This document shows positions 5,715 through 25,258 of a stretch of 34,774 bases of DNA, in pieces. Numbering within the stretch: the first letter of the stretch is position 1; each line of letters opens with the position of its first letter. The notes beneath the pieces are model-generated. The model was not told where the DNA came from. It worked only from the letters and a program-made list of their open reading frames with translations, and ran no database searches. The DNA comes from Candidatus Woesearchaeota archaeon (GTDB lineage Archaea; Nanobdellota; Nanobdellia; Woesearchaeales; JACJVV01), in assembly GCA_047603135.1 (NCBI GenBank), contig JBLKOW010000001.1, positions 1 through 34,774 of the forward strand. The letters run 5' to 3'. Position numbers and translations under genes: made by a program.

Positions 5715-6488
5715 TCACTTCTTTTTATTAAGACGTTTATATGAAACAGTAGCATGATGTTTTTCAAGTTTGTCAGTAACTTCTTTTATGAGAGGCTCAA
5801 ATACTGACTCTGCTTCTTTATAACTAGGTGCTTTAAATGATACATAATACTTTCCAGCTCCTTTATAGGTGCTATGCACATTACTTTTTTCAACAGGCTT
5901 AAATGCTTCTTTAATAACTTCAACACCATCATTTTCGTAACAAGAAATAGTAAACTCTCCTTCAATATGGACTTCTGGTGGTTTTATACGTTGTTTAATG
6001 ACTTCTTCAAGTTGATCAGCATGCGGAATATCGTAACTTTGCGCGGAAACTCCTTCATTAACAACATCATTAAAGAATGAAACTAAATCAGTATAATCAG
6101 CTTTAATTTTTTCGAGAATAATCTTATAATACTCAATTGTTTTTAATTTATTTTGCTGTGCAACATACTCAATGATTTTTTCAGACTTTTGAATTAACTT
6201 AATATATTCAACTTTTTTCTTTCGCTGTGAATCATTAACACGGCGTAAACTTAAATCAATATGTCCACGCTCAAGATTAATACGCAGTACAACACAAACA
6301 ACTTTCTTTCCTTCTTTTACAAAGTCGCGAATGTTACGGATACGTCCTGCTGCAATTTCAGAAATATGGATCATACCGCTTTTGCCATACTCATCTAGTT
6401 TAACAAACACAGAATTAGGTTGAACTGCAGTAATGGTGCTTAACACCAATTCTCCTTCCTCAGGAAAACCCTGCTTTTGAAATAACAT
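5715..6488 (-). CDS. eif2a: Translation initiation factor aIF2 alpha subunit
   Basis: 257 aa. It has an N-terminal S1 domain (PEEGELVLSTITAVQPNSVFVKLDEYGKSGMIHISEIAAGRIRNIRDFVKEGKKVVCVVLRINLERGHIDLSLRRV). It sits in the conserved archaeal neighbourhood with S27e, L44e and Nop10. Confidence 0.9.
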   Translation of the reverse strand: MLFQKQGFPEEGELVLSTITAVQPNSVFVKLDEYGKSGMIHISEIAAGRIRNIRDFVKEGKKVVCVVLRINLERGHIDLSLRRVNDSQRKKKVEYIKLIQKSEKIIEYVAQQNKLKTIEYYKIILEKIKADYTDLVSFFNDVVNEGVSAQSYDIPHADQLEEVIKQRIKPPEVHIEGEFTISCYENDGVEVIKEAFKPVEKSNVHSTYKGAGKYYVSFKAPSYKEAESVFEPLIKEVTDKLEKHHATVSYKRLNKKK

Positions 6489-6490
6489 GC

Positions 6491-6679
6491 TTACTCAAGT
6501 ACCTCCAAAATGCGAACACGGACAGAAGATTTTCCTCCGGTTGGAACAGCAAGACGCTTTCCACATACTAAACAGTGAACTTCAGTAGCAGATTTTCCAA
6601 AAATAACTTGCTCATTTTTGCATTTAGGACAACGGACTTTAACGAATTTTGAAACTGGTTCTCTTTGCATTTTTAACAC
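6491..6679 (-). CDS. rps27e: 30S ribosomal protein S27e
   Basis: 62 aa with a C4 zinc ribbon, CPKCKNEQVIFGKSATEVHCLVCGK. Confidence 0.9.
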   Translation of the reverse strand: MLKMQREPVSKFVKVRCPKCKNEQVIFGKSATEVHCLVCGKRLAVPTGGKSSVRVRILEVLE

Positions 6680-6994
6680 CTATACTAATTCAAGTTTCTT
6701 TGTTCGGAAACTTTTTCCTCGTGGAACGAATTGTTTTCTACTTTCAGTACATTCATATCGAAAGTCAATTCGTTTGCTTGTTTTTTTACCAGTCATTTTA
6801 AACTTTGTAACTGGAGGCTTACTACCATATTTTCCAAGATTTCCAGTTCCTTTTCCAAAGCCAGTTCGTTTTTTAGCGAATTGAGCAAGAGGATGTGTTG
6901 AACCAGGAGTTCTTTTTTTAGCTTGAACAACTTTGTGTACTGTATGTTTCTTTAAAACAGGATTATAACGTCGTATTTGTTTAGGTATCTTCAT
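6680..6994 (-). CDS. rpl44e: 50S ribosomal protein L44e (variant lacking the zinc-binding cysteines)
   Basis: 104 aa, basic. It contains the L44e-type segments KKHTVHKV and GKTSKRIDFRYECTESRKQF and is contiguous with rps27e. Confidence 0.85.
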   Translation of the reverse strand: MKIPKQIRRYNPVLKKHTVHKVVQAKKRTPGSTHPLAQFAKKRTGFGKGTGNLGKYGSKPPVTKFKMTGKKTSKRIDFRYECTESRKQFVPRGKSFRTKKLELV

Positions 6995-7145: not shown

Positions 7146-7236
7146 TCGAATGTAAAAAGTCAACATGCACGGCGAATTTATGTGTTTCTTACTAAGAAAT
7201 ACATCGCCTCGATGGGCAAAGTAGACTTTCTACTTA
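7146..7236 (-). repeat. Structured interspersed repeat, short form, copy 5 (inverted orientation)
   Basis: Its reverse complement aligns with 32388-32480 and with the 3' module of the long copies (GGCAAAG...GGCGAT-hairpin-TTCGCCGTGCA...GACTTTTTAC). CAAAAAT occurs on both flanks (7139-7145 and 7237-7243). Confidence 0.85.
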
Positions 7237-7334
7237 CAAAAATGCATAAACTATTTATATCGCAGTAATATATGCTGGAATAGTATAATATAGATAGAGA
7301 TAAAAAATCACATAAAACTATATGGGGGGATATT

Positions 7335-7727
7335 ATGGCAGAACAATCAGCAATTGGCGCATTTGTGCTTCGAATTGCAGTTGGTTTAATTTTTTTGGTT
7401 GCAGGTTTTGGTAAATTGATGAATCCAGCAATGCCAACAGGTATGCTTGAGGGGCTTGGCTTTCCAATGGCAGCAATGTTTGCATGGGTACTCATCATTG
7501 TTGAAATTGGTGGCGGTGCAATGCTTCTTTTAGGGTGGAACGTGCAATATGCATCAATTCCGTTAGCAATTATATTAGTTGTTGCAACAATTACGGTGTT
7601 TATACCGCAACTTGGTGGCGATAATCCAATGGCAATGATGGATGTGCTTTGGCACGTAATTGGAATTGGCGCATTAATCAGTTTGTATTTAACTGGTCCT
7701 GGTGCGTACGCACTCCAAAAGGAATAA
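7335..7727 (+). CDS. DoxX-family membrane protein
   Basis: 130 aa with 4 TM. The N-terminal LRIAVGLIFLVAGFGKL pattern is typical of DoxX. A purine-rich SD-like GGGGGGAT precedes the ATG. Confidence 0.65.
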   Translation: MAEQSAIGAFVLRIAVGLIFLVAGFGKLMNPAMPTGMLEGLGFPMAAMFAWVLIIVEIGGGAMLLLGWNVQYASIPLAIILVVATITVFIPQLGGDNPMAMMDVLWHVIGIGALISLYLTGPGAYALQKE

Positions 7728-7737
7728 ACCTAATCTA

Positions 7738-7753
7738 TTTTTTTATTTTTTTT
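7738..7753 (+). terminator. Oligo-T tract (T7-A-T8), a likely archaeal intrinsic termination signal after the DoxX gene
   Basis: TTTTTTTATTTTTTTT begins 11 nt after the stop codon, between convergent genes. Confidence 0.4.
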
Positions 7754-7858
7754 AATTCTATTTTCTTATATTTAGTATATGTCTTTATTATACACTTCTT
7801 TTGAAATGAGCATTGTAATAAAAGCTAATAAATAAAAGAATAAAAAAAGAAAAAATTT

Positions 7859-8992
7859 CTATTTCCCTACATATTGCCCAACAACTACATCCTTCACCGC
7901 ATCAATGGATTCCGATCGCTCAGGGAGCATATTAACCATATTGACTCCATGCTGAACTTCATGTCCGCTCACATCACGAACTCCTTTAAAGTCTGCATTG
8001 CCAGGTAATTGGAGCTGAGCAATTTCATTAATGACATGACGTGAATATTGGAATGTATTTTCCATGTCAGTCGTTGCGCCAGTTGATAAGTGAAGTGCTT
8101 TTCCAACTACATCAACTAATGATTCCATTTCCATCTGACCTTTGAAGATAATATCCATTGCATCGGCAGTATCAGCAAGCGAATCAGCAACCACTCCACA
8201 TTTTGCAGAGGCACCAGCATACGACTTTGCTTTGTTCTGAAAAATTTCTTTTAGGTGTGCATACCGTGGGATAGATTCATCAAGGCGATACATTCTTCCA
8301 GCTAAATCATGAAGTGCTAATTCGTGTTGATCATAGCTAATCACTGTATCTGCTTTGAATCCTTCTTTTTCAATCGCTTCACGCAATTCTCCAAGCGTTT
8401 CTTCTGCTTTTTTATATGCTTCAATAGTAGCATCTTTTTCATTCAAGAAACTTTCAAACTTACGTGTTGCATCCTCAGCAGCATCTGCATGTACTCGTAC
8501 GACATCATCTATCATTGCTTTATATCCTTCAAATTTTTCTGCATATGCTGAGAGAGCGCGATGATAGTTCTCAGCCTGTTCAATAACCATAGGAATAACA
8601 TCTCCTGGATTTTCAGGTTGATTATAAACAAGTTCTTTTTTGACACCAACTTGTTCTTTTTCTGCTACAGTTTCAGTTGTTCGTATTGTTTTTCGAAGTA
8701 CTGGTACTTCATATGTTGCACCAAATAATGAAATAGTTACTGGTACTTTTTTTTCGACCTCAACTTCTTTTTCTACTGTGTTATAGATCGGTGTTTCTTT
8801 TTCTTCGGCGAGTGAATCTTTCATACACTCATAGAGTTGTTCTCTACTTTGCATAACTGCATCATGCATGGAAGTAAGATTTTCTAAACCTCCACTATGC
8901 ATTTTTCCATTTCCATAATGTTTTTTTCCAAATCCATTTCGTTTTCCTGTTTTACGTGTTGCTTCCGTAAGTAATCCTTCGAGTTTTTGCAT
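7859..8992 (-). CDS. Hypothetical protein (acidic, helix-rich)
   Basis: 377-aa uninterrupted ORF, divergent from the atp operon. I recognise no motif. The plus-strand ORFs inside it are low-complexity shadows. Confidence 0.55.
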   Translation of the reverse strand: MQKLEGLLTEATRKTGKRNGFGKKHYGNGKMHSGGLENLTSMHDAVMQSREQLYECMKDSLAEEKETPIYNTVEKEVEVEKKVPVTISLFGATYEVPVLRKTIRTTETVAEKEQVGVKKELVYNQPENPGDVIPMVIEQAENYHRALSAYAEKFEGYKAMIDDVVRVHADAAEDATRKFESFLNEKDATIEAYKKAEETLGELREAIEKEGFKADTVISYDQHELALHDLAGRMYRLDESIPRYAHLKEIFQNKAKSYAGASAKCGVVADSLADTADAMDIIFKGQMEMESLVDVVGKALHLSTGATTDMENTFQYSRHVINEIAQLQLPGNADFKGVRDVSGHEVQHGVNMVNMLPERSESIDAVKDVVVGQYVGK

Positions 8993-9284
8993 GTAATCAC
9001 CTCATAAACTACATAAAATATGTTTATTAAGGAGTTTCCGACGAGAAAACTGAATAATTTTCAAGAAAATTGAATTATATTCTAAATGGGCGAAAAGGAT
9101 TACTGTTTTTAAGGAAAAAATGAAAGTATTTCCATATATTTGAAAAAATTATTTTTAAGAAAATGTGCATTTCATTCTTCTTCTCTTATCTAATTATGGT
9201 GATTTTGTGGTCACTAGTGTTGTTGTCTTAAACACTCTTAAAAATCATCTATTTTGAATTAACTACTGTTAAGGGAACGCATAC

Positions 9285-9292
9285 TTTTATAA
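9285..9292 (+). promoter_or_regulatory. Candidate TATA box of the atp operon
   Basis: TTTTATAA lies about 60 nt upstream of the atpH ATG in a 360-nt divergent intergenic region. Confidence 0.25.
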
Positions 9293-9352
9293 GTGATAAT
9301 GCTATAATCATAGCAACGAGAGAAAAGAAGACGTTAATTTGGATGTGATATT

Positions 9353-9667
9353 ATGGAAATTCTTACTGAATTAGAGGCCTTTGAAAGAGAACAGGTTAAG
9401 TCTCTTACGAAAGCCAAAGAAAAAGTTCTTGAAAAACTTCAAAGTGAGCAGGAGAATCTCCATGCTGAATATGAGCAAAAAATAAAAAACGCTCGTGCAG
9501 AAAAAGAAAAGCTAATTGCACACGCTAAGCAAAAAGCTGAACGTGATTCACACGAGACTGATGCAATGTATGAAAAAAAGGCTCAAGATATTTCAAAATT
9601 ATTCTCTGCAAAAAAGGATGAGGCAGTAGATCTTATTCTTAAGGAGTTTATCGATAATCATGTTTAG
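9353..9667 (+). CDS. atpH: A-type ATP synthase subunit H
   Basis: 104-aa charged coiled-coil protein. It is the first gene of the canonical H-I-K-E-C-F-A-B-D order and overlaps atpI by 8 nt. Confidence 0.6.
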   Translation: MEILTELEAFEREQVKSLTKAKEKVLEKLQSEQENLHAEYEQKIKNARAEKEKLIAHAKQKAERDSHETDAMYEKKAQDISKLFSAKKDEAVDLILKEFIDNHV

Positions 9668-11657
9668 AACAGCACCGATGTATCACATCGTTACAGCCGT
9701 TCCGCGCATTTCTTTAAGCAGAACGCTTACTCGGTTGCATCATGAAAAAATTAGTCAAGTCATTATTCCAGAAAGTAATGAAGTTCTACCTGTTGGGTCT
9801 TCAAAGGTATCTGATTCATCAAATAAATCTAATACATCAAACGCATCAAATCCTGAGAGTTCTTCTAAAACGGAATCAACTACTGTTTCTTTGCCTGCGG
9901 TCGAATCAATTTTTCAGCGTGTTTCGCAGTTACGTCAAAAATTAGATGAGTATGGGTTGCAACCTAAACGAGATATAATAAAAGAGCTTTTCACACGAAA
10001 AACAGTTTCTAGGAAGAATACAAAACCACATCCAATATATGGCACATCATATGAAAATCTGATTGAAGATACTGAAAAAGCGATTGCTCCTTTAGAAAAT
10101 CAATTAGCTGTTGCTCTTAAAAAGAGTGAGTCGCTTAAAGAGTCTATTGAACATACAGCATATGTAGTTAATGCTCTAAAACGACTTCCAAAAGGATTAC
10201 CAATCAGTGCCCTGCAAAATACTGAATGTATTCATACCATTGTTGGCAATATGTATCTTTCAAAAATTCCACTTATTGAAAAACAACTCAAAGAAAAAGC
10301 ACTGATTCATGTATATCCATTTGACAAAAGTCTTGCAACTATTATTGTAACGTGTACTAAAAAAGATATTGCATTTACTGAGCAGATTGTTCACGATACA
10401 GGCTTTGAAGAATTTATCATTCCGCAAGGAGATGTAACAGTTAAAGAAATGATTGAGCAATTGGAAAAGAGAATAACTAATGCAAAAACAGAGCAAAAGC
10501 AATTACAAACTACTGTAGTTGCATTACAAACTGAATATAATCCGTTATTAAATGATCTCTATATTAAATTATCAATTATTTATGATATTCAAAAAGCAAA
10601 AGGTGCAAGTGCTGGTCTTGAAGGATATGCAACTTTTGAGGCATGGGTTCCACAAAAAGAATTACCACATTTTACAAAGGTAATGGAATCAGAAAATGAA
10701 GGGTACGTATTTTTATACTGTGAAAAAGAAGACGCACCAACACTTCTTGAAAATCCTCAGGTAATCAAACCATTTGAAAGCATTACAGCGTTATATGCAC
10801 TCCCATCCTATAAACAGTTTGATCCAACTCCCATTTTAGCAGTTACCTTTTCACTCTTTTTTGGTTTTATGCTTACTGATGTTATCTACGGTTTAATACT
10901 TCTTATTTTTGGAATACTATTACTGCGTGGCAAGGGTTCATATCATGAAATGACGCGGAACATTAGTATTGTTCTTATTGCATTCGGTGGTGCAACACTA
11001 ATTTTAGGATCGTTATTTGGTTCATACTTTGGAAACTTTTTCCAGAGCTTTGGTATCTCAATTCCAGCATTAATTGATCCTATGTCGCAGGTAATGACTC
11101 TTTTAATATTAACACTTGTGCTCGGCGTCATTCATCTAGGCACAGGTCTGTTTATTGGTTTTATTGAGAATATTCGTAAAGGTGACCCACTCACTGCATT
11201 TCACACGCAAGGTGTATGGATTTTGTTTTTACTCTCAATATTATGCATCGTCGCAGGTTTACAAGCACTTGGTTTATCAATACTCTTTTCATCAGTCATT
11301 CTTCAAATAGTGTTAACATACATTAAAAGTGATGCTATTACGTCAGTACTTTCAATATTTAATTTTCCAAGTTTCATTGGTGACCTATTTTCATATGGAA
11401 GACTAATGGCGCTTGCGCTAGGAACTGCAGGTATTGCGCTTGCGGTTAATTTCATGACAGTACTTTCCTTTAGTATTCCTATTGTTGGACCAGTTATTGC
11501 AGTTCTTATTTTTGTCATTGGTCACACGTTTAATATGGCAATGAATGGACTAGGTGCATTTGTTCACTCGATACGTTTACACTTCCTTGAATTTTTCACG
11601 CGATTTTATGATGCGAATGGAAATAAATATGTACCATTTGGGCACCGAGAGGAATAG
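9660..11657 (+). CDS. atpI: A-type ATP synthase subunit I (stator a-subunit)
   Basis: 665 aa. It has a soluble N-terminal half and a polytopic C-terminal half with the conserved Arg region (LFSYGRLMALALG...HSIRLHFLEFF). Confidence 0.9.
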   Translation: MFRTAPMYHIVTAVPRISLSRTLTRLHHEKISQVIIPESNEVLPVGSSKVSDSSNKSNTSNASNPESSSKTESTTVSLPAVESIFQRVSQLRQKLDEYGLQPKRDIIKELFTRKTVSRKNTKPHPIYGTSYENLIEDTEKAIAPLENQLAVALKKSESLKESIEHTAYVVNALKRLPKGLPISALQNTECIHTIVGNMYLSKIPLIEKQLKEKALIHVYPFDKSLATIIVTCTKKDIAFTEQIVHDTGFEEFIIPQGDVTVKEMIEQLEKRITNAKTEQKQLQTTVVALQTEYNPLLNDLYIKLSIIYDIQKAKGASAGLEGYATFEAWVPQKELPHFTKVMESENEGYVFLYCEKEDAPTLLENPQVIKPFESITALYALPSYKQFDPTPILAVTFSLFFGFMLTDVIYGLILLIFGILLLRGKGSYHEMTRNISIVLIAFGGATLILGSLFGSYFGNFFQSFGISIPALIDPMSQVMTLLILTLVLGVIHLGTGLFIGFIENIRKGDPLTAFHTQGVWILFLLSILCIVAGLQALGLSILFSSVILQIVLTYIKSDAITSVLSIFNFPSFIGDLFSYGRLMALALGTAGIALAVNFMTVLSFSIPIVGPVIAVLIFVIGHTFNMAMNGLGAFVHSIRLHFLEFFTRFYDANGNKYVPFGHREE

Positions 11658-11798
11658 TAAAATAAATGGTAACAAGTAATATAAAATAATATAATAAAAA
11701 ATCAAAATAAATAGAAAGAAAATACAAAACAGAGATAAAAAAATGAAAAAAAGAAATTTACAATCGGAAATAAAAAAAATAACAGATGAGGTGTTAGC

Positions 11799-12284
11799 AT
11801 GAGCATAACATTAGGAACAGTATATGCAATTCTTGGCGCTGCAACAGCAATGGGATTTGCAGGGATTGCAACTGCAATCGGTGTAAAATCAGCAGGCGTT
11901 GCTGCAGCAGGTGCAGTTGCTGAGCGAAAGGAGAATTTTAAGAGTGCACTTGTTTTACAAGCACTTCCTCAAACGCAAACAGTTTATGCATTCATTATTT
12001 CACTTTTGATAATGATGGGAGCAGGACTTCTTGGTGGAGGAGCACGTGAACTTACCACATGGCAAGGATTATCTATGTTTGGTGCAGGACTTGCAGTAGC
12101 ATTAACCGGTATTTCAGCTGTGTTTCAGGGATTAGTTTCTGGTGCAGGTATTGTGGGATGTGCAAAGAATGAAAGTGCATTCGCTCCAAGTTTAATCTTT
12201 TCAGGGCAGTGTGAGACTCCAGCTATCTTTGGATTCATTGTCGCATTGATATTACTCGTTGTTGGAATTGGGGTGCTTGGTTAA
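11799..12284 (+). CDS. atpK: A-type ATP synthase proteolipid subunit K, duplicated (4 TM) form
   Basis: 161 aa forming two hairpins. Helix 2 carries ALPQTQTVYAF (Gln where the carboxylate normally sits). Helix 4 carries SGQCETPAIFGF (Glu retained). The SD-like GAGGTG precedes the ATG. Confidence 0.9.
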   Translation: MSITLGTVYAILGAATAMGFAGIATAIGVKSAGVAAAGAVAERKENFKSALVLQALPQTQTVYAFIISLLIMMGAGLLGGGARELTTWQGLSMFGAGLAVALTGISAVFQGLVSGAGIVGCAKNESAFAPSLIFSGQCETPAIFGFIVALILLVVGIGVLG

Positions 12285-12839
12285 ATGCGCATGATTGGAA
12301 ATCCTGAACGATTGAAGAAGAGTATTAGTATGCATTATGCTAAAATTCTTAAGGAATTTGAGGAGACTGAGCGTACAAAGGCTGCACGCGATATTGCTGA
12401 AATTCATGATAAGTTTGAGAAACAACTCATTGCAATTCAGAAGCAGACTGAGGATGAAGAAAAATCAGCATACAGAACAACCATTTCTGCACGAACAATC
12501 TCATCAAAGAAAGCATATGAAGGTATTCGTGAACGTTTAATAGGTGATGTTTTCAGTGAAGCACTTAAGAAAGTTCCTCATGTTTTAACAAGTGAGGAAT
12601 ATATAAAAAAGGTGCAAAAAAATCTTGAGTCAACGAACTATGATAAAATAGAGGGTGGATACTCAGAATATGGTAGTCATTTTCCAGGTATTGTAATTAA
12701 TCATAAATTAAAAGGGATAATTGCACATGCAGGAAATGCGTACTTTGATTTTACATACACCTCGTATATTTTATCAAGTAAACAAGAGATTCGTCAAAAG
12801 ATTATCGCACTTATTTCAAATAGAAAAGGAGGAATCTAA
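12285..12839 (+). CDS. atpE: A-type ATP synthase subunit E
   Basis: 184 aa with an N-terminal coiled coil and a C-terminal globular part. Its position in the operon fits subunit E. Confidence 0.75.
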   Translation: MRMIGNPERLKKSISMHYAKILKEFEETERTKAARDIAEIHDKFEKQLIAIQKQTEDEEKSAYRTTISARTISSKKAYEGIRERLIGDVFSEALKKVPHVLTSEEYIKKVQKNLESTNYDKIEGGYSEYGSHFPGIVINHKLKGIIAHAGNAYFDFTYTSYILSSKQEIRQKIIALISNRKGGI

Positions 12840-13927
12840 TGTTAGCAGAAACAGGGATTATTGTTGGGGGAACTGCAGTTGCAGCGGGTACACTTGCAAT
12901 AGTTGCCTATAAAAACTTACAAGAAGGTTCTTATTTGTATGTGAACGCACGAATTGCATCACGCTCGTCAGAGCGTATTTCGCAGCAGAAATACGTACAA
13001 CTTGCTCATCTTTCCCATCTAAAAGATGTTGTTTCTGCACTCCGTGAGACATCATATTATCCTTATCTTGAACAAAATAATGGACATGATGTTCTTTCAT
13101 ATGATAAAGCACTTGAAGAAGCTCAGATTCATGCATTTGAAGAAATGAAGAAGTTATCTCCTGCACGACTTCACCCAGTTCTTGATGCATATGGTCTTCG
13201 TTTTGAAACACCCTTCTTGAAAGCAATTTTCAGGTCATTATTTACCAAAAAAGTGCTTGATACAAAATATCTTCCGACCGCAGGAGTAAATCCATTATTT
13301 GTTCAGCGTTTAAGTACAGCAAAAACTCTCGGTGATTTAGCAGTTATTTTACATAATAGTCCTTATCAAGGCTTGCTCGATACTTCATACCCAACAATTG
13401 AAGCGTTTGATGTCGCACTTGATAAACATGTGTATTGTATTTTAGAAAAATCATTATCAAAGCTACGCACATTCGACGCACAGTCATTGCGTGATTTGTT
13501 TGTGTATGAAAACTCAATTGATAATATCTTATCATTAATTCGTATTCGTCTTAGAGGAATTGATTGGAAATTAGTTACTGGTGAGACTGTTGGTTTTTAT
13601 GATGTATATGGCGTTTTACTTGACGATGCTCTTCGCGCGCCATCTATGAAAGCATTTGTCGAACTCTTTAAAGATACACCGCTATATGATACATTAAAAC
13701 ATACACTTGCAACAGCTGGAGAAAAAAATGTCCGTGCCTATGAGCATGCGTTAATCTCTGCAAAAATAAAATATGTTAATGATAATAATGTAGGTAAATC
13801 AACAAGTCCTTATTCAATCTTTGCGTATCTTATGCATATTGGATATGAGCGTCGTAATTTACTCGTCGTTGCAAAAGCCGTTACTGGTGGAATTCCAAAA
13901 GAAGATGTTCAGGAGTTGATAGTATGA
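12839..13927 (+). CDS. atpC: A-type ATP synthase subunit C
   Basis: 362 aa, helical. Assigned by operon position and size. Its start overlaps the atpE stop by 1 nt. Confidence 0.8.
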   Translation: MLAETGIIVGGTAVAAGTLAIVAYKNLQEGSYLYVNARIASRSSERISQQKYVQLAHLSHLKDVVSALRETSYYPYLEQNNGHDVLSYDKALEEAQIHAFEEMKKLSPARLHPVLDAYGLRFETPFLKAIFRSLFTKKVLDTKYLPTAGVNPLFVQRLSTAKTLGDLAVILHNSPYQGLLDTSYPTIEAFDVALDKHVYCILEKSLSKLRTFDAQSLRDLFVYENSIDNILSLIRIRLRGIDWKLVTGETVGFYDVYGVLLDDALRAPSMKAFVELFKDTPLYDTLKHTLATAGEKNVRAYEHALISAKIKYVNDNNVGKSTSPYSIFAYLMHIGYERRNLLVVAKAVTGGIPKEDVQELIV

Positions 13928-14247
13928 GTCAAAATATCTCAGCAACAAACACTGCATCGCATACACGATTAATTGTAATTTCACATGAAGAATTTGCACT
14001 AGGAATGCGTCTTGCAGGAGTGCGAGAGAGTTATGCAGTAAATAATAAAGAAGAAGCATTAAAAGCATATCAAACAATAACACCTGATGCGTTTGTAATT
14101 GTAACTGAAGGTATAACTGAGTTAATTCCAGAGCTAAAAGAGCTTGCTAACGTAGTTATTTTTCCAGACAAAGTAGGTGACTTTTCAAACATATCTGATT
14201 TAAAGAGAATTACACGAATCGCAATTGGTTCAGAAATTGAATTATAA
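13924..14247 (+). CDS. atpF: A-type ATP synthase subunit F
   Basis: 107 aa with LIVISHEEFALGMRLAGV, typical of subunit F. ATGA overlap with atpC. Confidence 0.8.
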   Translation: MSQNISATNTASHTRLIVISHEEFALGMRLAGVRESYAVNNKEEALKAYQTITPDAFVIVTEGITELIPELKELANVVIFPDKVGDFSNISDLKRITRIAIGSEIEL

Positions 14248-14266
14248 TAATGTATGAGGGTACACA

Positions 14267-16486
14267 ATGACAAACGAAAATAGATTACAAGGATCAATTA
14301 AAAGCATTGCAGGGCCACTAGTAGTTGGAAGAGACATGCAAGGCGTAAAAATGTATGATTTAGTTAAGGTTGGAAAACTAAAGCTAATGGGTGAAGTAAT
14401 TCAACTGCGAAATGACACTGCATATATTCAAGTCTATGAAGATACATCTGGTCTTACTACTGGTGAAGAAATTGTCTCAACAGATATGCCATTAAGTGTT
14501 GAATTAGGTCCTGGATTACTTGGAAGCATTCTTGACGGTGTTGGACGCCCGCTTCCTATTATTGCAGAGAAAACAGGAACATACATTGCTCGTGGTGTGG
14601 AAGCTCCCACGATAAATAAAGAAAGACGATATGAATTCTCTCCTTCTATTAAAGAGGGTGATGATGTTGTTCCTGGTCAAGTTCTAGGTTCAGTAAAAGA
14701 AACCGACCTCATTAAACATTACATAATGGTTCCTGTTGGTGTTGTTGGTCGTGTTAAAGACATAATTCCTGGTACATGTACTGCAAAGGATGTTATTGCA
14801 CGAATCCAAACTGCAGGAGGCACTCATGAAATTACATTAGCACAGTGGTGGCCGGTACGTCGCTCACGTCCTGTAAAGAAAAAGCTTGACCCTGCAGAAA
14901 TGCTTGTATCAGGACAGCGTGTTTTCGATACTTTCTTTCCGTTAGTTAAAGGTGGTACTGCAGCTATTCCTGGTCCTTTTGGTTCAGGGAAAACAGTATC
15001 TCAGCATCAGCTTGCAAAATGGGTTAATGCTGATATTGTTGTCTACATTGGTTGTGGTGAGCGTGGAAATGAGATGACTGAAGTACTCAAAGAATTTCCT
15101 GAATTAATAGATCCTAAGACTGGTAAACCACTTATGGAGCGAACAGTTCTTATCGCAAACACAAGTAACATGCCAGTTGCTGCGCGTGAAGCGTCTATTT
15201 ATACAGGGATTACTATTGCAGAATATTATCGTGACATGGGATATGATGTAGCATTAATGGCAGATTCAACATCGCGCTGGGCTGAAGCACTTCGTGAAAT
15301 GTCCTCTCGTCTTGAAGAAATGCCTGGTGAGGAAGGATATCCTGCATACTTATCTTCTCGTCTTGCACAATTTTATGAGCGTGCAGGTAAAGTGGTAACT
15401 CTTAATAATAAAAATTCATCATTATCGATTATTGGTGCAGTTTCTCCTCCTGGTGGAGACTTTTCAGAACCAGTCACACAAAATACCTTGCGTATTACCA
15501 AAGTATTCTGGGGGCTTGATGCAAAACTAGCATACAAGAGACACTTCCCTTCAATTAATTGGTTGACTTCATACTCGCTTTATAGCGATAAATTACATAG
15601 CTTTTACGAAAAAGTTGATGCAGACTTTCCTGATTTAATAAACACGGCAATGTCATTGCTTCAAAAAGAATCCGAACTACAAGAAATTGTTCAGTTAGTT
15701 GGTCCAGATGCACTTCCTGATAATGATCGGCTCGTGCTCCATACCGCGCGAAAGCTACGTGAAGATTATTTACAACAGCACGCTTTTCATGATATTGACT
15801 CCTATTGTTCACTTGAAAAGCAACATATGATGCTTAAAGTAATTATTGATTATCATAATGTACTCAATAGCTTTATCAAAAAAGGATCTAAGTTTGTAAC
15901 ACTTGTTGATGAAAAGATTGATGAGCAAATTGCACGAATTAAATATCAAAAAGATAGTAAAAAATATGTTGCTAATATTTATGATATGATTGAGAAAACA
16001 CGTCCAAAGTCTGTAAGTGAGCGAAAAGATGAAACAGATAAAGAAGGACGAGATGCACAGAAAAAAGCAGATGAGAAAAAAGAGCAAAACGCGCAAAATG
16101 AATCTCGAAGTAACACTCGCAAAGAAACTAAAAAAGAAGTCGCCACAGAAACTAAAAAAGAATCGACTCGAGCGCACTCAGCGTATTTATCAAAAGAATC
16201 TGCTAAAACATCTACTCGTAAGAGTGTAAGTAGTAATAGTAGAAAAAGTGCTGCTAAAAAAGCAAAAAATAAGCTACGTAAAAATCCAAAAAAACGTACA
16301 AAAGTAAAAAAAAGTATGGCACAAAACGCTTCTAAAAAAGTAGCAAAAAAGCCAGTAAAGCGCTCAAATTCGCAAAAACCATCAAAATCGCAAAGAAGCA
16401 ATTCAAAACGTAAAACTGCAGGAAAAAGTTCTGCACGAAAGCGACCACTGTCGCGCAAGCCTAAATCAAGGAAGGTGAAATCATGA
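14267..16486 (+). CDS. atpA: A-type ATP synthase catalytic subunit A with an unusual Lys/Ser/Arg-rich C-terminal extension
   Basis: It has the Walker A motif [17 protein letters not shown], and [16 protein letters not shown]. The homologous core ends near residue 575-585. About 160 low-complexity basic residues follow before the stop, which overlaps the atpB start (ATGA). Confidence 0.95.
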
Positions 16487-17859
16487 TTAAAGAATATACT
16501 TCAGTAACAAACGTAATCGGCCCTTTGGTCGTAGTAGAAGGCGTTAGTAATGTTGCGTACGGTGAAATTGTTACCATCAGAACTGCAAATAATGAACAAC
16601 GTATGGGTCAAGTTCTTGAAATAGGTGAAGGTCGTGCTATTGTGCAAGTCTTTCAAGGAACAACTGGAATTGACACACGTAATACGCGTGTAAGATTCAC
16701 TGCTGAAACCATGAAGATCAATGTAAGTCCTGATATGCTTGGTCGTGTTTTTAGTGGTGTTGGAAAGCCACTTGATGGACAGCCTGATGTTATTCAAGAA
16801 GCACGGCTTGATGTAAACGGTAATCCGCTTAATCCATCCTCACGTGAATATCCTTCTGAATTTATTCAAACAGGAATCTCAGCAATAGATGTTATGAACA
16901 CATTAGTTCGTGGACAAAAATTACCTATTTTTTCTGGCTCAGGTCTTCCTCATAATAAACTTGCAAGTCAGATTGCAAAGCAAGCGCGCGTTCTTGGGAA
17001 AGATGAACAGTTTGCAGTAGTATTTGCGGCTATGGGAATTACTTTTGAAGAAGCACAATTCTTTAGGAGTGAGTTTGAAAAAACAGGTGCAATGAATAAT
17101 GTTGTCATGTTTCTTAATTTAGCAGATGATCCTGCAATTGAGCGAATAATAACCCCAAGAATGGCACTTACTACAGCAGAATATTTAGCATATGAAAAAG
17201 ATATGCATATCTTAGTAATCTTAACTGATATGACTAATTATTGTGAGGCGCTACGTGAGATTTCAGCAGCGCGAAGTGAAGTTCCTGGAAGACGAGGATA
17301 TCCTGGATACATGTATACTGACTTAGCAGCACTCTATGAGCGTGCAGGAAAAGTAAAGGGAAAAACAGGTACATTAACACAAATGCCAATTATATCGATG
17401 CCTGATGATGACATTACGCATCCCATCCCTGATTTAACAGGATATATCACTGAAGGACAATTTGTACTTAGTCGTGATTTACATAGAGGGGGAATTTATG
17501 CTCCTGTTGATGTTCTTCCATCGCTGTCTCGGCTCATGAAAAAAGGAATTGGTGAAGGAAAAACACGAAATGACCACGATGATGTTTCTAACCAATTATA
17601 TGCTGCGTATGCACGAGGAAGAGAACTTCGCGACTTAGTTGCAGTTATTGGTAAGGAGTCCCTTGCAGAAGTTGATCGAAAGTTCCTTGACTTTGCAGAA
17701 GAGTATGAACAAACATTTGTTAATCAACCTTACACTGAGGATCGTGCTGTCACGGAAAGTCTTGACAAGGCATGGGAATTACTGCGAAAACTTCCTCGCA
17801 GTGAGCTGAAGCGTATTAGTGTTGAAATACTTGACGAATATTATAATAAGGAAAATTAA
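16483..17859 (+). CDS. atpB: A-type ATP synthase subunit B
   Basis: 458 aa with [51 protein letters not shown], and ITEGQ. Confidence 0.95.
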
Positions 17860-17936
17860 GGTAGCTAAGCAAAAGTACTTGTACAGTAAAACTAAATGAA
17901 AGAATAAAAGTACCAAGTTGTTCAAAAAAAGTAAAA

Positions 17937-18542
17937 ATGGAAACTATAAAACCAACACGAATGGAATTAATCCGAACAAAGCGTCGCATAGTTCTTGCAA
18001 AAAAAGGGCATAAACTCCTCAAGCAAAAACGAGACGTTCTTGTTATGGAGTTTTTCTCTTTGCTTAAGGAAATTAAAGTTATTCGTCAGCGCCTTGCAGA
18101 TACACTTGGGAATGCTCAAACATCTCTTGCACGCGCAATTGCAATGGAAGGTATGGTGACCGTTCAGCGTCTTGCTCTTGGTATGACTGATAAATTAGAT
18201 ATATCTTTTACTCGGGCGCGTATGATGGGAGTAGAAGTCTCTCGTCTTGAAAATTTAAACCCTTCGTATCAATGGCCTGGTTATCTAGGACATTCAGTTG
18301 AATTAACAAATGCAATTGTATTGTATCGAAATGTATTTTCAGACTTTGTACATCTTGCTGAAAAACAGCATGCGCTCAATAAACTTGGTGAAGAGATTCA
18401 GCGGACAAAAAGGCGTGTTAATGCACTTGAATTTATTCGTATGCCTTTCTTAGCAAAAGCAAAGAAACAAATTGCATTTAGATTAGAAGAACTTGAACGT
18501 GAAAATTTCTCACGTCTAAAACAACTCAAGAAAAAGAATTAA
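17937..18542 (+). CDS. atpD: A-type ATP synthase subunit D (central stalk)
   Basis: 201 aa. PTRMELIRTKRRIVLAKKGHKLLKQKRDVLVMEF is the subunit D N-terminal signature. Confidence 0.9.
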   Translation: METIKPTRMELIRTKRRIVLAKKGHKLLKQKRDVLVMEFFSLLKEIKVIRQRLADTLGNAQTSLARAIAMEGMVTVQRLALGMTDKLDISFTRARMMGVEVSRLENLNPSYQWPGYLGHSVELTNAIVLYRNVFSDFVHLAEKQHALNKLGEEIQRTKRRVNALEFIRMPFLAKAKKQIAFRLEELERENFSRLKQLKKKN

Positions 18543-18606
18543 TGCAACATAACTATTAACCTAACTATTGTATACGTCTTGCATATGTCCTGTATATCTC
18601 CTGCTC

Positions 18607-18744
18607 ATGAAATCAATTCACCATCGAAAAAAGAATGAACGCCTCGTCATTTTGCTTGGGTTTGCTCGGCTCTTTTCTGAAATAACTATAGTTATTGGTT
18701 TTTTAACACTTATTGGCATAGTGGTGTATCATTTATTTTTTTAA
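18607..18744 (+). CDS. Possible 45-aa single-TM micro-protein (speculative)
   Basis: MKSIHHRKKNERLVILLGFARLFSEITIVIGFLTLIGIVVYHLFF has a basic head and one hydrophobic helix. It is below the ORF-track size cutoff and lies in an otherwise unexplained 343-nt spacer. Confidence 0.2.
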   Translation: MKSIHHRKKNERLVILLGFARLFSEITIVIGFLTLIGIVVYHLFF

Positions 18745-18885
18745 AAGGTGCAACATTATATCTCTTGCATTTATTTAATTCCCTTCACTATATTACCCTC
18801 AAGAACAGTAATATTTAAAAATGCGAAATGAAGTAGGTATTACTTAATGAAATTAGTTTTAACAAATTTGGTTGGGTGAGTGTGA

Positions 18886-19623
18886 ATGAAAAATGAATTA
18901 GGTAGTTTAGTTAGTTCTGGAATAGACCCTGAGAAAGCAGAGGCACGTGAATTGTGGAAACGCGGGCATTTGAATGGTTCGTATTCAAACCAAGATCCAG
19001 GATATAAGTTTGCGCGTCGTGCTGAAAAACATGGTTCACCACGAACATATGTTCCTCCAGCAGAAAGACAAATACCTGTGGAAGATGGACATGGAAACTC
19101 TACGAGTGGAAATAAGTTTGATGAACAGTGGTCAGGAGATGATAAAGTATCGCTTGATGAAGTTTTATCAGCAGTTGATTCTGAATCGGTATTTAACGCA
19201 CGTGTTCAAGCAGTGTATGAGGGCGGTGTTCTAGATATCGGTTATGATGCAGATTCACGCGTTATGGAAGTATATGGTGATGCACCTCTTTACAACTTAG
19301 CACTCTTTTTAGGAGATAGTAAAAATGTTTCAGAGGTAGTTGTGCATCATAATGGTGAAGAAAATCGTCTTTCATATGATAAAAAACGCGATGTAATCAG
19401 TCTTAATGGAATGGAAATGTTTTGTCCTCATGATCCAGATAAGCCAATTAACTCAAGACAAGTACATGCAGTTCAGATACCTGGAATGGAAAGAGTAAGT
19501 CTTGAGGCACTTGAAGGAAATGGTCATTATCATCCAGAGATTGAATTCGATGATTTATTGGCAAAACCTGAGACGATGGAACGGCCAAGCACTGATGAAA
19601 TGACTCGTGTGTATAGAGATTAA
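18886..19623 (+). CDS. Hypothetical protein
   Basis: 245-aa ORF, acidic, with no recognisable motif. Its stop codon lies inside the TTAATTAG direct repeat that borders repeat copy 1. Confidence 0.55.
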   Translation: MKNELGSLVSSGIDPEKAEARELWKRGHLNGSYSNQDPGYKFARRAEKHGSPRTYVPPAERQIPVEDGHGNSTSGNKFDEQWSGDDKVSLDEVLSAVDSESVFNARVQAVYEGGVLDIGYDADSRVMEVYGDAPLYNLALFLGDSKNVSEVVVHHNGEENRLSYDKKRDVISLNGMEMFCPHDPDKPINSRQVHAVQIPGMERVSLEALEGNGHYHPEIEFDDLLAKPETMERPSTDEMTRVYRD

Positions 19624-19627
19624 TTAG

Positions 19628-19868
19628 TAAAATCTGCTTTTTCCACCAGTGTGTTTTTACATGCCTGGCTACGTCTGTGCATGTTCACGCGCGGCATAGT
19701 GGAAAAAGCAGGGTCTGAGAAAACCGACCAAGCCGTAGGCGAGCATGCCTCCAGTCTCTGACTGGTGGTGTCGGTTTTCGATTGACAAATCGACTTTGCC
19801 CTTTGAGGCGATGTGTTTCTTGTCAAAGAAACACATAAGTTCGCCGTGCAAGTTGATTTTTTACGTGC
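19628..19868 (+). repeat. Structured interspersed repeat, long form, copy 1 (complete)
   Basis: It aligns with 29074-29310 and 30706-30995, and its 3' module aligns with 32388-32480 and complement 7146-7236. It has multiple internal helices, including a perfect 13-bp pairing (19634-19646 with 19699-19711). It is flanked by the exact 8-bp direct repeat TTAATTAG. Confidence 0.9.
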
Positions 19869-19985
19869 TTAATTAGCTTTTTATTTTCTTTCTTTTATTC
19901 TTTATTCTAACCTAGTATTAACTATGCATTTTATTCCATAACTAATATAAATAATGAGCATTTGGTTCCATTCTGAGGTGAATAA

Positions 19986-20504: not shown

Positions 20505-21617
20505 CTATTCAAACAAGCGTTTGAAGAAACCGCTCTTTTTGCTTTCAGCATCAAGCTCTTCAAAGAGTTTGCGCTCTTTCTTAGAAAGTGATGTAGGCAC
20601 TTTAATCTTAACTTTAACTAACTGGCTTCCTTTTGCTGAAGATTGTAAATGCTGAATCCCTTTATCTTTCATTTTAAAGATAGTGTCAGGCTGCGTTCCA
20701 GCAGGGATGCGCAGTTTTGCTTTACCAAGCAAGGTTGGTACTTCAATCTCAGTTCCAAGTGCTGCCTGAGAAACACTAATAGGGTATTCTAAATAAATAT
20801 CATTACCTTTGCGCGTAAATCTTTCGTCTGGTTTCACATGAACAAAAACATAGAGGTCTCCGTTTATGCCATTGGGTATTGCCTCTCCCTCCCCTTCGAG
20901 ACGAAGACGCATTTCATCATCAATCCCTGCAGGGATTCGTACATCTAGTTTTTTCTTTGTTCGTACAAGTCCTGTTCCATCACAATGTGAACATTCTTTT
21001 TCAATAGTTTTTCCTGTGCCTCTACATGTATTACAAGGGGCATTTGTTTGAAATAATCCAAATGGGGTGCGCTGTGTTCGCCGAACCTGTCCAGCTCCTT
21101 TACAATCAGGACATGTTTTAATTGCGTCAGGCGATTCTGCACCTGTTCCTTTACATTCAGGACATGTATCAAGTTTAGTGAATTGAATTGTTTTTGTTGT
21201 TCCAAACGCAGCCTCTTCAAGTGTTATATCAATATCATACCGCAGGTCTTCTCCGCGAAGTTGTCTGCGTCTTCTTCCACGCCCGCCAAAGCCAAAACCT
21301 CCACCAAATATATCACCTAAATGATCGAACAAATCACCAAAGTCTCCTTGAAATGACTCAAATCCGCCAAAATCAAATCCACCTTGACCTCCTCCAAATC
21401 CGCTAGGATCTGCAGTTCCGTATTGGTCATAGTGTTGGCGTTTTTTATCGTCGCTAAGAACTGCTGCAGCTGCATTTATTTTCTTAAAATGCTCTGCATC
21501 ACCTGTTTCTTTATTATCTGGGTGGTATTTTCGTGCTAGTCGTTTGTACGCTTTTTTAATCTCGTCTCGGCTTGCGTTTTTTGAAACACCAAGAAGTTCG
21601 TAATAATCATCTGTCAT
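20505..21617 (-). CDS. dnaJ: Chaperone DnaJ (Hsp40)
   Basis: It has a J domain (DYYELLGV...YHPD), a Gly/Phe-rich linker, and four CxxCxGxG repeats. The start is set at MTDDYY (ATG 21617), which forms an ATGA overlap with the upstream HD gene stop. The ORF track extends 6 codons further. Confidence 0.95.
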   Translation of the reverse strand: MTDDYYELLGVSKNASRDEIKKAYKRLARKYHPDNKETGDAEHFKKINAAAAVLSDDKKRQHYDQYGTADPSGFGGGQGGFDFGGFESFQGDFGDLFDHLGDIFGGGFGFGGRGRRRRQLRGEDLRYDIDITLEEAAFGTTKTIQFTKLDTCPECKGTGAESPDAIKTCPDCKGAGQVRRTQRTPFGLFQTNAPCNTCRGTGKTIEKECSHCDGTGLVRTKKKLDVRIPAGIDDEMRLRLEGEGEAIPNGINGDLYVFVHVKPDERFTRKGNDIYLEYPISVSQAALGTEIEVPTLLGKAKLRIPAGTQPDTIFKMKDKGIQHLQSSAKGSQLVKVKIKVPTSLSKKERKLFEELDAESKKSGFFKRLFE

Positions 21618-22201
21618 GAGTATACATCCTCGCAAAGATATGGTTCAATTGTTTTTTCATTGATATTTTCAGGTCGTAGCCCTATCTTTTTAAATATTTG
21701 GTCTTCAAGTGCATGAAGTAGTAGGCGTATTTTCTCAGTATCTTTTGAAAGTACTGGATATCGTCGTGCTCCATCTTCAAGGCGTTCGTCAATACTAATT
21801 ATATTATCATGCAAAACACGTTTATCTGCGTAATATAAGATGCGTTCTTCCCATGAATTAAAGCCATTATATATGTTACTTGTTTTATGAGCGCGCACAA
21901 TTGCTGCGATTTCTGAAAAACCTTTTGCAATTAAAAGATCAGCACCAGCATCCTCATGTGCACCACACTCCTTTTTGATTTCATCAAACTTCTTAATATC
22001 ATGAAGTATGCCTGCTATGCGTATATTCTCTACGTTAACAGGAACTCCATGCTCGTTTAATCTCTCAGCAAGAAACAGTGCAACACCCTGCACTTTACGT
22101 GCGTGCAGGAATATGTTGCGTGGTGTTTCTGTTTCTTTGAGGAGTGCAATGCACTCTTCATGTGATGGATGATTGCTTGCTGTCACTTTTGTTGTATGCA
22201 T
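21614..22201 (-). CDS. HD-domain phosphohydrolase
   Basis: 195 aa with H...HD metal-binding signature (FLHARKV ... AGILHDIKKFD ... HK). It is inserted between dnaK and dnaJ and translationally coupled to dnaJ. Confidence 0.75.
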   Translation of the reverse strand: MHTTKVTASNHPSHEECIALLKETETPRNIFLHARKVQGVALFLAERLNEHGVPVNVENIRIAGILHDIKKFDEIKKECGAHEDAGADLLIAKGFSEIAAIVRAHKTSNIYNGFNSWEERILYYADKRVLHDNIISIDERLEDGARRYPVLSKDTEKIRLLLHALEDQIFKKIGLRPENINEKTIEPYLCEDVYS

Positions 22202-22215
22202 TAAATAATATGCAT

Positions 22216-24165
22216 CTATTTCTTGTCTTTCTTACTTTTATCTTCAGCTTTTTTATCTGCTTTTTCATCGACCACATCTGCATCAACAACGGTTTCATCT
22301 TTTTTAGTAGATGCATCTTCTGGTTTACCTTGCGCACCTTCTGTTCCTGAACCAGCTGCTGCTTGTCCTTTTTGTGCTTCAGCTGCTGCCTTTGCATAAA
22401 GATCAGTTGCAACTTTTTGGAACTTTTCAGTTAATTCGTCTTTCTTTTTCTTAATTGTTTCGTAGTTTTTGTCTCTATCTTTCAAAAGTTCCTTGAGTTC
22501 CTCAAGTTCTTTTTGAATTGGCTCAATCTCTTTTTTATCTGCTTTGTCGCCCATTTCTTTGAGTGTTTTTTCGTACTGGAAAACCATGCTTTCTGCTTCA
22601 TTAAGTGTTTCTATTTTTTCACGTTTCTTTTTGTCTTCTTCTGCATGCTTTTCTGCATCTTCCTGCATCTTTTTAATTTCATCTTCACTCAGATTACTTG
22701 TTCCAGTGACGGTAATCTTTTGTTCTTTTCCAGTTCCCATGTCTTTTGCACTAACATGTACGATACCATTTGCATCAATATCGAAGGTAACTTCAATTTG
22801 TGGAACGCCTCTTGGTGCTGGCGGGATTCCTTCTAAGTCAAATCGACCTAGGCTTTTATTGTCAGCCGACATTGCACGTTCTCCTTGGAGTACATTAATG
22901 GTAACAGCTGGCTGATTATCTGCAGCAGTTGAAAAGATTTGACTTTTCTTTGTTGGGATGGTTGTGTTTCGCTCAATAATCTTTGTGGAAACTCCTCCAA
23001 GCGTCTCAATACCAAGGCTGAGTGGGGTAACATCAAGAAGAAGTACATCTTTTACTTCTCCGCCAAGAATTCCTGCTTGAATTGCTGCACCAAATGCTAC
23101 AGCCTCGTCTGGGTTAACAGATTTATCTCCTTCAAGTCCAGTAATTTCTTTAACTAACTTTTGTACTGCAGGAATCCGTGTTGAACCACCTACTAAAATA
23201 ACTTTATCAACCTTTAGATCTGCATCTTTAATTGCTTGTTCAGTTGGAGTTCTTAATTTAGTAAGTATATCACTAATCAGACTTTCAAATCGTGATCGTG
23301 ATAGTGTTAAATTGATGTGCTGGTTCTGTGTGATGTATGGTATATTGATAGTTGTTTCTGATGCGCTACTTAATTCAATTTTTGCTTTTTCTGCTGCATC
23401 TTTTAATCGCTGAAGTGCAAGTTTATCTTCACGTAAATCGTTGCCACTGTCTTTTTTATGTTCTTCAGCAATCCAGTCAATAATTGCTTCATCAATATCA
23501 TCTCCACCGAGGTGATTATTACCTGATGTTGCTTTTACTTCAAAAACGCCTTCATCAAGTTCAAGAACGGATACATCAAATGTACCTCCTCCAAAGTCAA
23601 AGACAAGAACATTATGTGCTTCTGATTTATCAAGACCATATGCGAGAGCTGCTGCAGTCGGTTCGTTTACGATTCTCAAAACATTTAATCCTGCAATTGC
23701 TCCTGCATCTTTTGTTGCTTGTCTTTGCGCGTCATTAAAATATGCTGGAACAGTAACAACTGCATCTTTAACTGCATGTCCTAGGTATGCTTCTGCATCT
23801 CGCTTTAATTTTTGAAGTGTAATTGCTGAGATTTCCTGTGGCTTGTATTCTTTTCCATCAACTTCAACTGTTTCGTTTGAACCCATTTTACGTTTAATAC
23901 TTCTTACAACGTGTGCAGGATCAACAATTGCCTGATTCTTTGCAACTTGTCCAACAACTCGTTCATTTCCTTGTCCCTTAATCCACACAACAGAAGGTGT
24001 TGTCCGTGATCCTTCAGCATTAGGGATAATGGTTGGTTTACCTCCCTCAATAACCGCAACTGCAGAGTACGTTGTTCCTAAATCAATACCTATTGCTTTT
24101 GCAACAGTGCGTCCTTTTTTTTCTTCACCTTGTGGTTTCTTTTCGTCTTTTTTAGTATCTGTCAT
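22216..24165 (-). CDS. dnaK: Chaperone DnaK (Hsp70)
   Basis: 649 aa with [23 protein letters not shown], and [14 protein letters not shown]. The SD-like GGAGGGA precedes the ATG. Confidence 0.97.
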
Positions 24166-24183
24166 AATAATCCCTCCGATAAT

Positions 24184-24240
24184 ATTTTTGTAGTGTTTAT
24201 TTCGTATTGTTTATTTTTGTAGTGTTTTTTTCGTATAGTA
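24184..24240. repeat. Tandem direct repeat (about 29-nt unit, two copies plus short ATTTTT-led partials) in the grpE-dnaK spacer
   Basis: ATTTTTGTAGTGTTTATTTCGTATTGTTT is followed by ATTTTTGTAGTGTTTTTTTCGTATAGT, then ATTTTTCACATAAT and ATTTTTCTAAC. Confidence 0.7.
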
Positions 24241-24280
24241 TTTTTCACATAATATTTTTCTAACAAACTTTTTGTATTCT

Positions 24281-24892: not shown

Positions 24893-24904
24893 AAAATATC
24901 CACC

Positions 24905-25258
24905 TCATCCAAAATATGTTGGTGTTTCATTTGGTCGTTTAGCCATTCCTTTAGCAGATTTCTTTTGTTTCTTTTCTGCATGCTTAATTGCTTTAGGAAC
25001 TTCTATTTTTCCAAACTGTTTTTCATAATCTTGTATAACTTTTGTAAGTAAATCTTTAAACAGCAGTGCATGGTATGGATCAACCATCACCACATTATGT
25101 TTTACTGCAAGGGTTGGGTGTCCTTTATCGCGTTCATCAACGCGTGGAGTTATACTTTTAAAATCAAAAAATACCATGGTTGGGTTGAAATTAATAGATG
25201 CTTGATGTGCATAAAATGCATCACCATCTGAAATTGTCATATTGATTTTTTGTTCCAT
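24905..25258 (-). CDS. DUF3467-like small protein, first gene of the chaperone operon
   Basis: 117 aa. FYAHQASINFNPTMVFFDF resembles the DUF3467 core (Y.N...I.hs..EF.lDF). The SD-like GAGGT precedes the ATG. Confidence 0.55.
   Translation of the reverse strand: MEQKINMTISDGDAFYAHQASINFNPTMVFFDFKSITPRVDERDKGHPTLAVKHNVVMVDPYHALLFKDLLTKVIQDYEKQFGKIEVPKAIKHAEKKQKKSAKGMAKRPNETPTYFG

Follow-up and report, generated by a model that had tools for sequence, protein, structure and literature searches.

Solved structures of A/V-type ATPases place the C-terminal domain of subunit A at the bottom of the A3B3 head, next to the central stalk and towards the membrane. The F1 alpha subunit of mycobacteria carries a C-terminal extension (alpha514-548), of which alpha533-545 docks into the gamma subunit, and this extension regulates the enzyme (PMC8698299). 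Lysine-rich low-complexity regions have been linked to non-specific binding of nucleic acids (PMC6821194), and AlgP of Pseudomonas is reported to associate with polyphosphate granules (PMC9239181). Here we describe atpA, the gene for the catalytic A subunit of an A-type ATPase, in a 34,774-nucleotide stretch of contig JBLKOW010000001.1 (the window) from a Candidatus Woesearchaeota archaeon. This DPANN archaeon has a genome assembly of 1.03 Mb with 34% GC that is 86% complete, and among named proteins its best matches are to Woesearchaeota and Nanoarchaeota. Compared with canonical archaeal subunit A (Pyrococcus horikoshii 1vdz and 3i4l; Thermus V/A-ATPase 3a5c), the window AtpA is alike in core, motifs and operon order and adds approximately 150 C-terminal residues. 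Since the catalytic subunits of rotary ATPases are among the most conserved proteins, a 25% gain in length is unusual.

The atpA gene and its C-terminal tail

The product of atpA has 739 amino acids, as does its near-identical twin on a Logan contig (P0002). The matches to PF02874, PF16886, PF00006 and PF22919 were all above the gathering thresholds, and the last Pfam domain ends at residue 528. The domain set comprises an N-terminal beta-barrel, the A-specific barrel-sandwich insert, the nucleotide-binding domain and the V/A C-terminal domain. Residues 8-578 aligned with residues 4-575 of the 588 residues of P. horikoshii subunit A (PDB 1vdz_A; E=1.7e-230), and the Walker A P-loop and the GERGNEM motif (Table 1) were read in the translation and are aligned with this chain. 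In the complete A-type operon, atpA is preceded by atpF and followed by atpB, and Pfam matches to V_ATPase_I, ATP-synt_C, vATP-synt_AC39, ATP-synt_F, the A and B subunit domains and ATP-synt_D were obtained; the 184-aa gene is assigned to subunit E and the 104-aa gene to subunit H by position only, their Pfam matches being weak or absent. Every defining feature tested was present, and the window protein is a bona fide AtpA.

We determined the extent of the tail from the conserved KYxK anchor. In the 120 best homologues from a collection of 5.8 billion proteins, the median distance from this anchor to the C-terminus was 31 residues, whereas it was 177 residues in the window AtpA. The excess is about 146-153 residues, corresponding roughly to window positions 16025-16483. 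The initial annotation had described a basic tail of about 160 residues fused to the catalytic subunit from position 16000; the tail is real, in frame and preceded by a complete core, and that start is approximately 8 codons early but in essence correct. The last 160 residues contain 41 K, 27 S and 16 R. The first 80 of these residues include 22 K+R and 15 D+E, and the last 80 include 35 K+R and no D+E. The tail is predicted to form a helix of approximately 43 residues followed by approximately 115 disordered residues. In the AlphaFold2 single-sequence model of residues 440-739, the helix was placed at fragment positions H144-186, with block values of the predicted local distance difference test (pLDDT) of 64-87. 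The predicted helix is a K/E/D/R/Q mix broken by S, N and T, and its comparison with single alpha-helix (ER/K) domains is made from a single-sequence model only.

The tail also contains direct repeats. Besides the repeat listed in Table 1, we found repeat families spaced 18, 78 and 114 nt apart. Every spacing, that of 24 nt included, is divisible by three, as expected if segments were duplicated in frame or arose by slippage and later decayed; the repeats are weak and irregular. Runs of 7-8 A occur in consecutive AAA lysine codons at window positions 16290-16311. Transcriptional or ribosomal slippage at these runs could in principle give truncated tail variants, since the other frames soon meet stop codons.

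An open frame of this composition could be an artefact, either because an error removed a stop codon or because the gene of a small basic protein was wrongly joined to atpA. The A-runs are places where indel errors are common, the full-length tail comes from a single population, and the genome also encodes stand-alone AKKK-repeat proteins. Errors, however, disrupt frames rather than keep 150 codons open. The tail DNA consists of 48.5% A and 14.8% T, and the probability that 160 codons of this base composition are free of stops is ~4e-5; none of 20,000 shuffled sequences stayed open, and the remaining two forward frames over the tail contain 6 and 20 stops. The proportion of T at codon positions 1, 2 and 3 of the tail is 12%, 7% and 26%, respectively, which is coding-like, and the synonymous codons used for K, E, R, S, A and T agree with those of the core and of the genome. 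The Logan assembly of SRR32456830 matched the window with 99.8% identity over 13.9 kb. It differs at 29 sites, none of them in the tail, so that two distinguishable assemblies share every tail base; the stop codon or frameshift near residue 580 that the initial annotation had named as a possible refutation was found in neither. Furthermore, the reading frame ends exactly on an ATGA overlap with atpB, as the initial annotation had noted, and the spacer between atpA and atpB in relatives is only 11 nt. Codon 683, the sole in-frame ATG of this region, follows an A-run and has no ribosome-binding site, and for this reason a separate 57-aa basic protein starting from it was rejected. An assembly error or a mis-joined gene behind the tail is very unlikely.

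An antisense open reading frame (ORF) of 159 aa, F/L-rich, is stop-free along the tail (15979-16458, minus strand). It was rejected as a gene: it mirrors the AAA/AAG-rich codons and has no family match. It could mislead gene callers. Another side observation concerns the core. Of the 29 sites at which the Logan contig (L021) differs from the window, 20 cluster in a 154-nt patch of atpA (window 14569-14722). This patch, with 13% divergence and seven residue changes, belongs to the A-specific barrel-sandwich insert and has the look of recombination with a diverged allele.

Table 1. Positions of the ATPase features in the window, and further proteins of the genome that carry basic ends
Feature	Position	Strand	Remarks
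A-type ATPase operon	9353..18542	+	archaeal order H?-I-K-E-C-F-A-B-D; Pfam
atpA	14267..16486	+	single ORF, 739 codons
Canonical A-subunit core	14267..16024	+	residues 1 to ~586; P-loop GPFGSGKT, GERGNEM
Mixed-charge (K/E/D/R/Q) segment	16013..16141	+	residues about 583-625; single long helix predicted
In-frame direct repeat in tail	16120..16162	+	19 nt twice, 24 nt apart; encodes ETKKE twice
Disordered K/S/R-rich polycationic segment	16142..16483	+	residues 626-739; coil predicted, pLDDT mostly <50
Shine-Dalgarno-like GGAAGGTGA of atpB	16470..16478	+	within last tail codons; read from sequence
ATGA overlap, atpB start / atpA stop	16483..16486	+	ATG 16483-16485, TGA 16484-16486
atpB	16483..17859	+	458 aa, length normal
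MscS channel			basic C-terminal tail; Pfam
VCA0040-like translocase			basic N-terminus; Pfam
Lon-like membrane protease			basic C-terminus; Pfam
aIF2-gamma			basic N-terminus; Pfam
tRNA-splicing endonuclease			basic N-terminus; Pfam
S4/pseudouridine synthase			basic N-terminus, about 210 aa; Pfam

Relatives of AtpA and origin of the tail

We searched for relatives of the tail in several collections. Among the proteins of 406-1294 aa in the collection of 5.8e9, tail residues 578-739 matched only the near-identical twin. No match was obtained against 1.84e9 cluster representatives (phmmer) or against Pfam at E<=1, and scans with back-translated patterns of residues 520-739 gave no tail match in 185,579 species genomes and the JGI metagenomes. 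The absence of a homologue from everything searched indicates that the tail is neither a fused gene nor a captured domain, and the gene fusion considered in the initial annotation is not supported. In the GTDB order, 401 genomes were surveyed (including four unpublished genomes, G134, G209, G211 and G315, without which the tally is the same and which enter into no other result), and a comparable tail was absent from all 149 that bear AtpA. The survey gave leads in the form of open frames >650 aa and of matches running through stops to query positions up to 729. Twenty of these were fetched and all had canonical C-termini; the long frames owed their length to sequence upstream or at the N-terminus, and the matches through stops were compositional. 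None of the A chains of A/V-ATPases in the PDB has a comparable extension, and literature searches on ATP synthase extensions in DPANN or Woesearchaeota returned nothing relevant. The statement of the initial annotation that no such tail is known on an A/V-ATPase catalytic subunit thus holds for the solved A chains and the literature searched.

The closest relatives of the window AtpA are two metagenomic proteins, P0003 (610 aa, 72% identity, SRR20069387) and P0004 (615 aa, 70% identity, ERZ27301260). In a quick IQ-TREE phylogeny built on tail-trimmed columns, the window protein and its twin (P0001 and P0002) are sister to P0003 and P0004 with a Shimodaira-Hasegawa-like approximate likelihood ratio (SH-aLRT) support of 99, and the next clade has canonical ends. 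P0003 and P0004 also end in basic, acid-poor tails, which reach 52-57 residues past the anchor and about 26-31 past the median end and have a net charge of +15. In the comparison of atpA 3' ends, as proposed in the initial annotation, these sister proteins carry shorter basic tails and the 149 AtpA-bearing genomes of the order carry no such tail. The sister tails have no mixed-charge helix region, and BLASTP of the window tail against the sister tail gave nothing significant.

The nonsynonymous and synonymous divergences (dN and dS) between P0003 and P0004 were compared for the core and the tail. The core gave a dN of 0.056, a dS of 1.7 and an omega of ~0.03. In regards to the tail, the values were 0.38, 1.1 and ~0.35, and three indels were found, all of them in frame; dS is saturated in this comparison. 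On the sister contigs atpA and atpB do not overlap, 11 nt separating them, and an equivalent GAGGTG follows the atpA stop; in the window the atpA ORF extends over the ribosome-binding site of atpB, and translational coupling is retained in the operon. As the sister spacer comprises only 11 nt, no spacer was available for read-through. The lost stop codon that the initial annotation had offered as an explanation is not supported, there being nothing to read into, and the relatives have no intergenic sequence equivalent to the tail, which would have made it a non-conserved spacer.

Long ends are found on other AtpAs as well. Among the 120 best homologues, only five clusters overrun the median end by >20 residues, with acidic tails in three and basic tails in two. 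Other DPANN AtpAs (P0015, P0115 and P0120) have acidic or polar low-complexity C-tails that end 79-106 residues past the KYxK anchor, and one DPANN AtpA (P0031, locus L026 at G295:C4) has a basic N-terminal extension of ~30 aa. The occurrence of acidic tails indicates that the charge of the tail is not demanded by the enzyme. The termini of AtpA seem unusually permissive in the DPANN superphylum, where floppy ends recur as independent acquisitions.

From these comparisons we infer that the long tail is homologous to the short sister tails, by position and charge only. By parsimony the basic tail probably arose once in this small clade, and it would have kept its frame and its basic charge while synonymous divergence went to saturation. 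A short basic tail would then have been present in the common ancestor of the window AtpA and its two closest metagenomic relatives, and in the window lineage A-rich codons that were duplicated in frame, or that slipped, may have lengthened it to ~150 residues. The tail of the clade appears to change fast in both sequence and length, with a several-fold expansion in the window lineage.

Basic ends in the genome and possible functions of the tail

To place the tail among the other proteins of the genome, we scanned a crude set of 1030 ORFs of at least 80 aa for basic, acid-poor segments, defined as stretches of 40 aa or more in which K+R account for 40% or more of the residues and D+E for no more than 10%. 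Such segments were found in 16 ORFs, and the longest was that of AtpA (residues 640-739, 100 aa). Carriers with a Pfam assignment are listed in Table 1; further carriers include several multi-transmembrane proteins of no known family. Nine or ten of the 16 carriers are predicted to contain transmembrane helices, compared with 30% of the whole ORF set (one-sided Fisher test, p = 0.007-0.024), an enrichment that is exploratory and post hoc and was obtained with a crude hydropathy predictor. The MscS orthologues of the same genus also have basic tails, which are shorter and unrelated in sequence. The basic N-terminal extension of aIF2-gamma (L054, G000:C71:1979-3355; L064-L068) is found order-wide with lengths of about 20-55 residues and is longest in the window genome. 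These results show that the AtpA tail is the extreme of a lineage-wide set of K/S/T/R-rich low-complexity ends, which is strongest in the window genome and occurs mainly on membrane and RNA-binding proteins. Because similar tails are present on many other proteins of the genome, a dedicated ATPase-specific function is less likely.

Two stand-alone proteins with AKKK-type repeats were also observed in this genome. One (G000:C9:4459-4725, plus strand) has 88 aa and consists nearly entirely of (V/A)AKKK-type repeats. The other (G000:C16:9388-9783, minus strand) has 131 aa, in which a small N-terminal domain that is duplicated (YLYF(V/I)DK motif) precedes an 80-aa repeat tail, and has no Pfam match. 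Both are candidate histone-H1-like chromatin or RNA-binding proteins.

We consider it fairly probable that the tail, with the origin proposed above, is a lineage-specific disordered polycationic arm that acts, if at all, through electrostatic contacts without specificity, the head groups of anionic lipids being the most plausible target. Three such arms would hang under each A3B3 head, each composed of the ~43-residue helix and ~115 floppy residues with a charge of about +35, and they would be long enough for the membrane surface or the rotor. The arms would bind polyanions without sequence specificity, anionic lipids being the likeliest partners and RNA, DNA and polyphosphate the alternatives. 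The outcome would be weak electrostatic anchoring or clustering and no new catalysis, with constraint falling on the charge and frame of the tail and not on its residues. To our knowledge, all A/V-ATPases have their A3B3 head on the cytoplasmic side. As the A1 head faces the cytoplasm, the tether to a host surface suggested in the initial annotation is rejected on topology. The tethering to nucleic acid or to membranes that it also suggested is possible.

Several points weigh against an electrostatic arm. The proposed membrane contact derives from the geometry of solved structures and from the modest post hoc enrichment of membrane proteins, which a generalised positive-inside effect or a lack of any function would explain just as well. 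The tail, known here from its sequence alone, could be clipped after translation. Its full-length form comes from one population only, both assemblies may come from the same or related samples, and its homology with the sister tails is by position and charge alone, BLASTP between them having found nothing.

Some of the same observations suit a tail without any function, that is, a translated expansion of A-rich codons that is tolerated at an exposed C-terminus and was fixed by drift in an AT-rich symbiont of small population size. The 34% GC of the genome, the absence of homologues, the single population and the many unrelated proteins with similar ends are in line with such a passenger, as is the fast evolution of the sister tails, with their indels and a dN/dS more than tenfold that of the core; the acidic tails of other DPANN AtpAs likewise show that the charge is not generally required. 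Both branches of the clade, however, keep a basic, in-frame tail despite saturated synonymous divergence, and the strictly acid-free charge of the last 80 residues goes beyond A-richness alone, since the acidic codons GAA and GAT are also A-rich. Moreover, the basic ends of this genome are mostly on membrane and RNA-binding proteins, for which the targets of a polycation are obvious. We regard a neutral passenger as possible and rather unlikely. A more novel reading would be that the tail is a functional module of the enzyme, in which the three arms clamp the head electrostatically to anionic membrane, RNA or polyphosphate or act as a brake on the rotor; this appears distinctly unlikely. If it were true, the module would be an extra stator or a latency switch for a DPANN symbiont, and no catalytic subunit of the A/V type would have been described with a regulatory or tethering extension before it.

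Rotor braking in its specific form, in which part of the tail such as the predicted helix (residues 583-625) docks on subunits D/F or on the C-terminal domains of A/B and blocks wasteful hydrolysis of ATP, is highly doubtful. The site is analogous to that of the mycobacterial extension, since in either case a hexamer subunit of the same alpha/beta superfamily is extended at its C-terminus, towards the rotor, and deletion of the mycobacterial extension, whose docking into gamma is described above, stimulates the ATPase (PMC8698299). A helical element is predicted with moderate confidence, and a latent ATPase could suit an energy-limited DPANN symbiont. Set against this, the window and sister tails have no motif in common, the sisters do not have the mixed-charge helix, the tail is four times the length needed for a hook and mostly of low complexity, and unrelated proteins have similar tails. 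A predicted complex of tail residues 560-650 with subunits D and F gave a score of 0.00, which is no answer and speaks neither for nor against binding.

Genomic setting and comparison with known systems

The ATPase operon is situated within an island of ~12.7 kb (window 7150-19870) that is missing at the syntenic site of same-genus genomes (compared with L069 and L071). In two of these, G001 and G002, the homologues of the window genes at 20505-25258 directly adjoin those of the genes at 3342-6994. No AtpA or AtpB matches were found in the same-genus genomes G001-G003, which are 93-98% complete. The island is flanked by inverted copies of a repeat resembling a miniature inverted-repeat transposable element (MITE) at 7152-7222 and 19793-19864 (88% over 73 nt). 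The aIF2-alpha of the window has 67% identity to the copies of G001-G003, compared with <=55% elsewhere in the order, and the nearest relatives of the window AtpA belong to other families. These observations suggest that the ATPase operon was gained horizontally or rearranged via the MITE.

Should the tail act on the membrane or the rotor, an energy-limited symbiont would be tuning its A-type ATPase in a new manner, parallel to the mycobacterial alpha extension, which is used as a drug target. It is more probable that the tail exemplifies the ease with which DPANN genomes add charged disordered ends to housekeeping proteins, in this genome chiefly membrane and RNA-binding proteins. This tendency is little described and would bear on the annotation of DPANN genomes and on the origin of low-complexity sequence in reduced genomes. 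Taken alone, a low-complexity tail from a single population is of modest interest, and its function is putative.

The window tail and the mycobacterial F1 alpha extension are both lineage-specific and are both located at the C-terminus of a hexamer subunit on the side that faces the rotor. The mycobacterial extension, however, belongs to the non-catalytic alpha subunit of an F-type enzyme, comprises ~35 residues with a docking motif and is conserved across mycobacteria, whereas the window tail is on the catalytic A subunit, comprises ~150 residues and is low-complexity and polycationic without a conserved motif. In regards to the lysine-rich ends of prokaryotic proteins (histone-H1-like proteins and AlgP), the window tail is similarly rich in K/A/S/P/R, acid-free, predicted to be disordered and terminal. 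It differs from them in being part of a bioenergetic enzyme that is bound to the membrane and is not known to act on nucleic acids. Neither a regular repeat of the AKKA, SPKK or KKxx type nor a family profile was found in it by Pfam (E<=1) and homologue searches; the tail lies outside the histone-H1-like and lysine-repeat families and may still work like one of them. Further parallels are the tails of the two sister AtpAs, which, although far shorter and without a helix segment, share with the window tail its position, its basic and acid-poor composition and its fast evolution.

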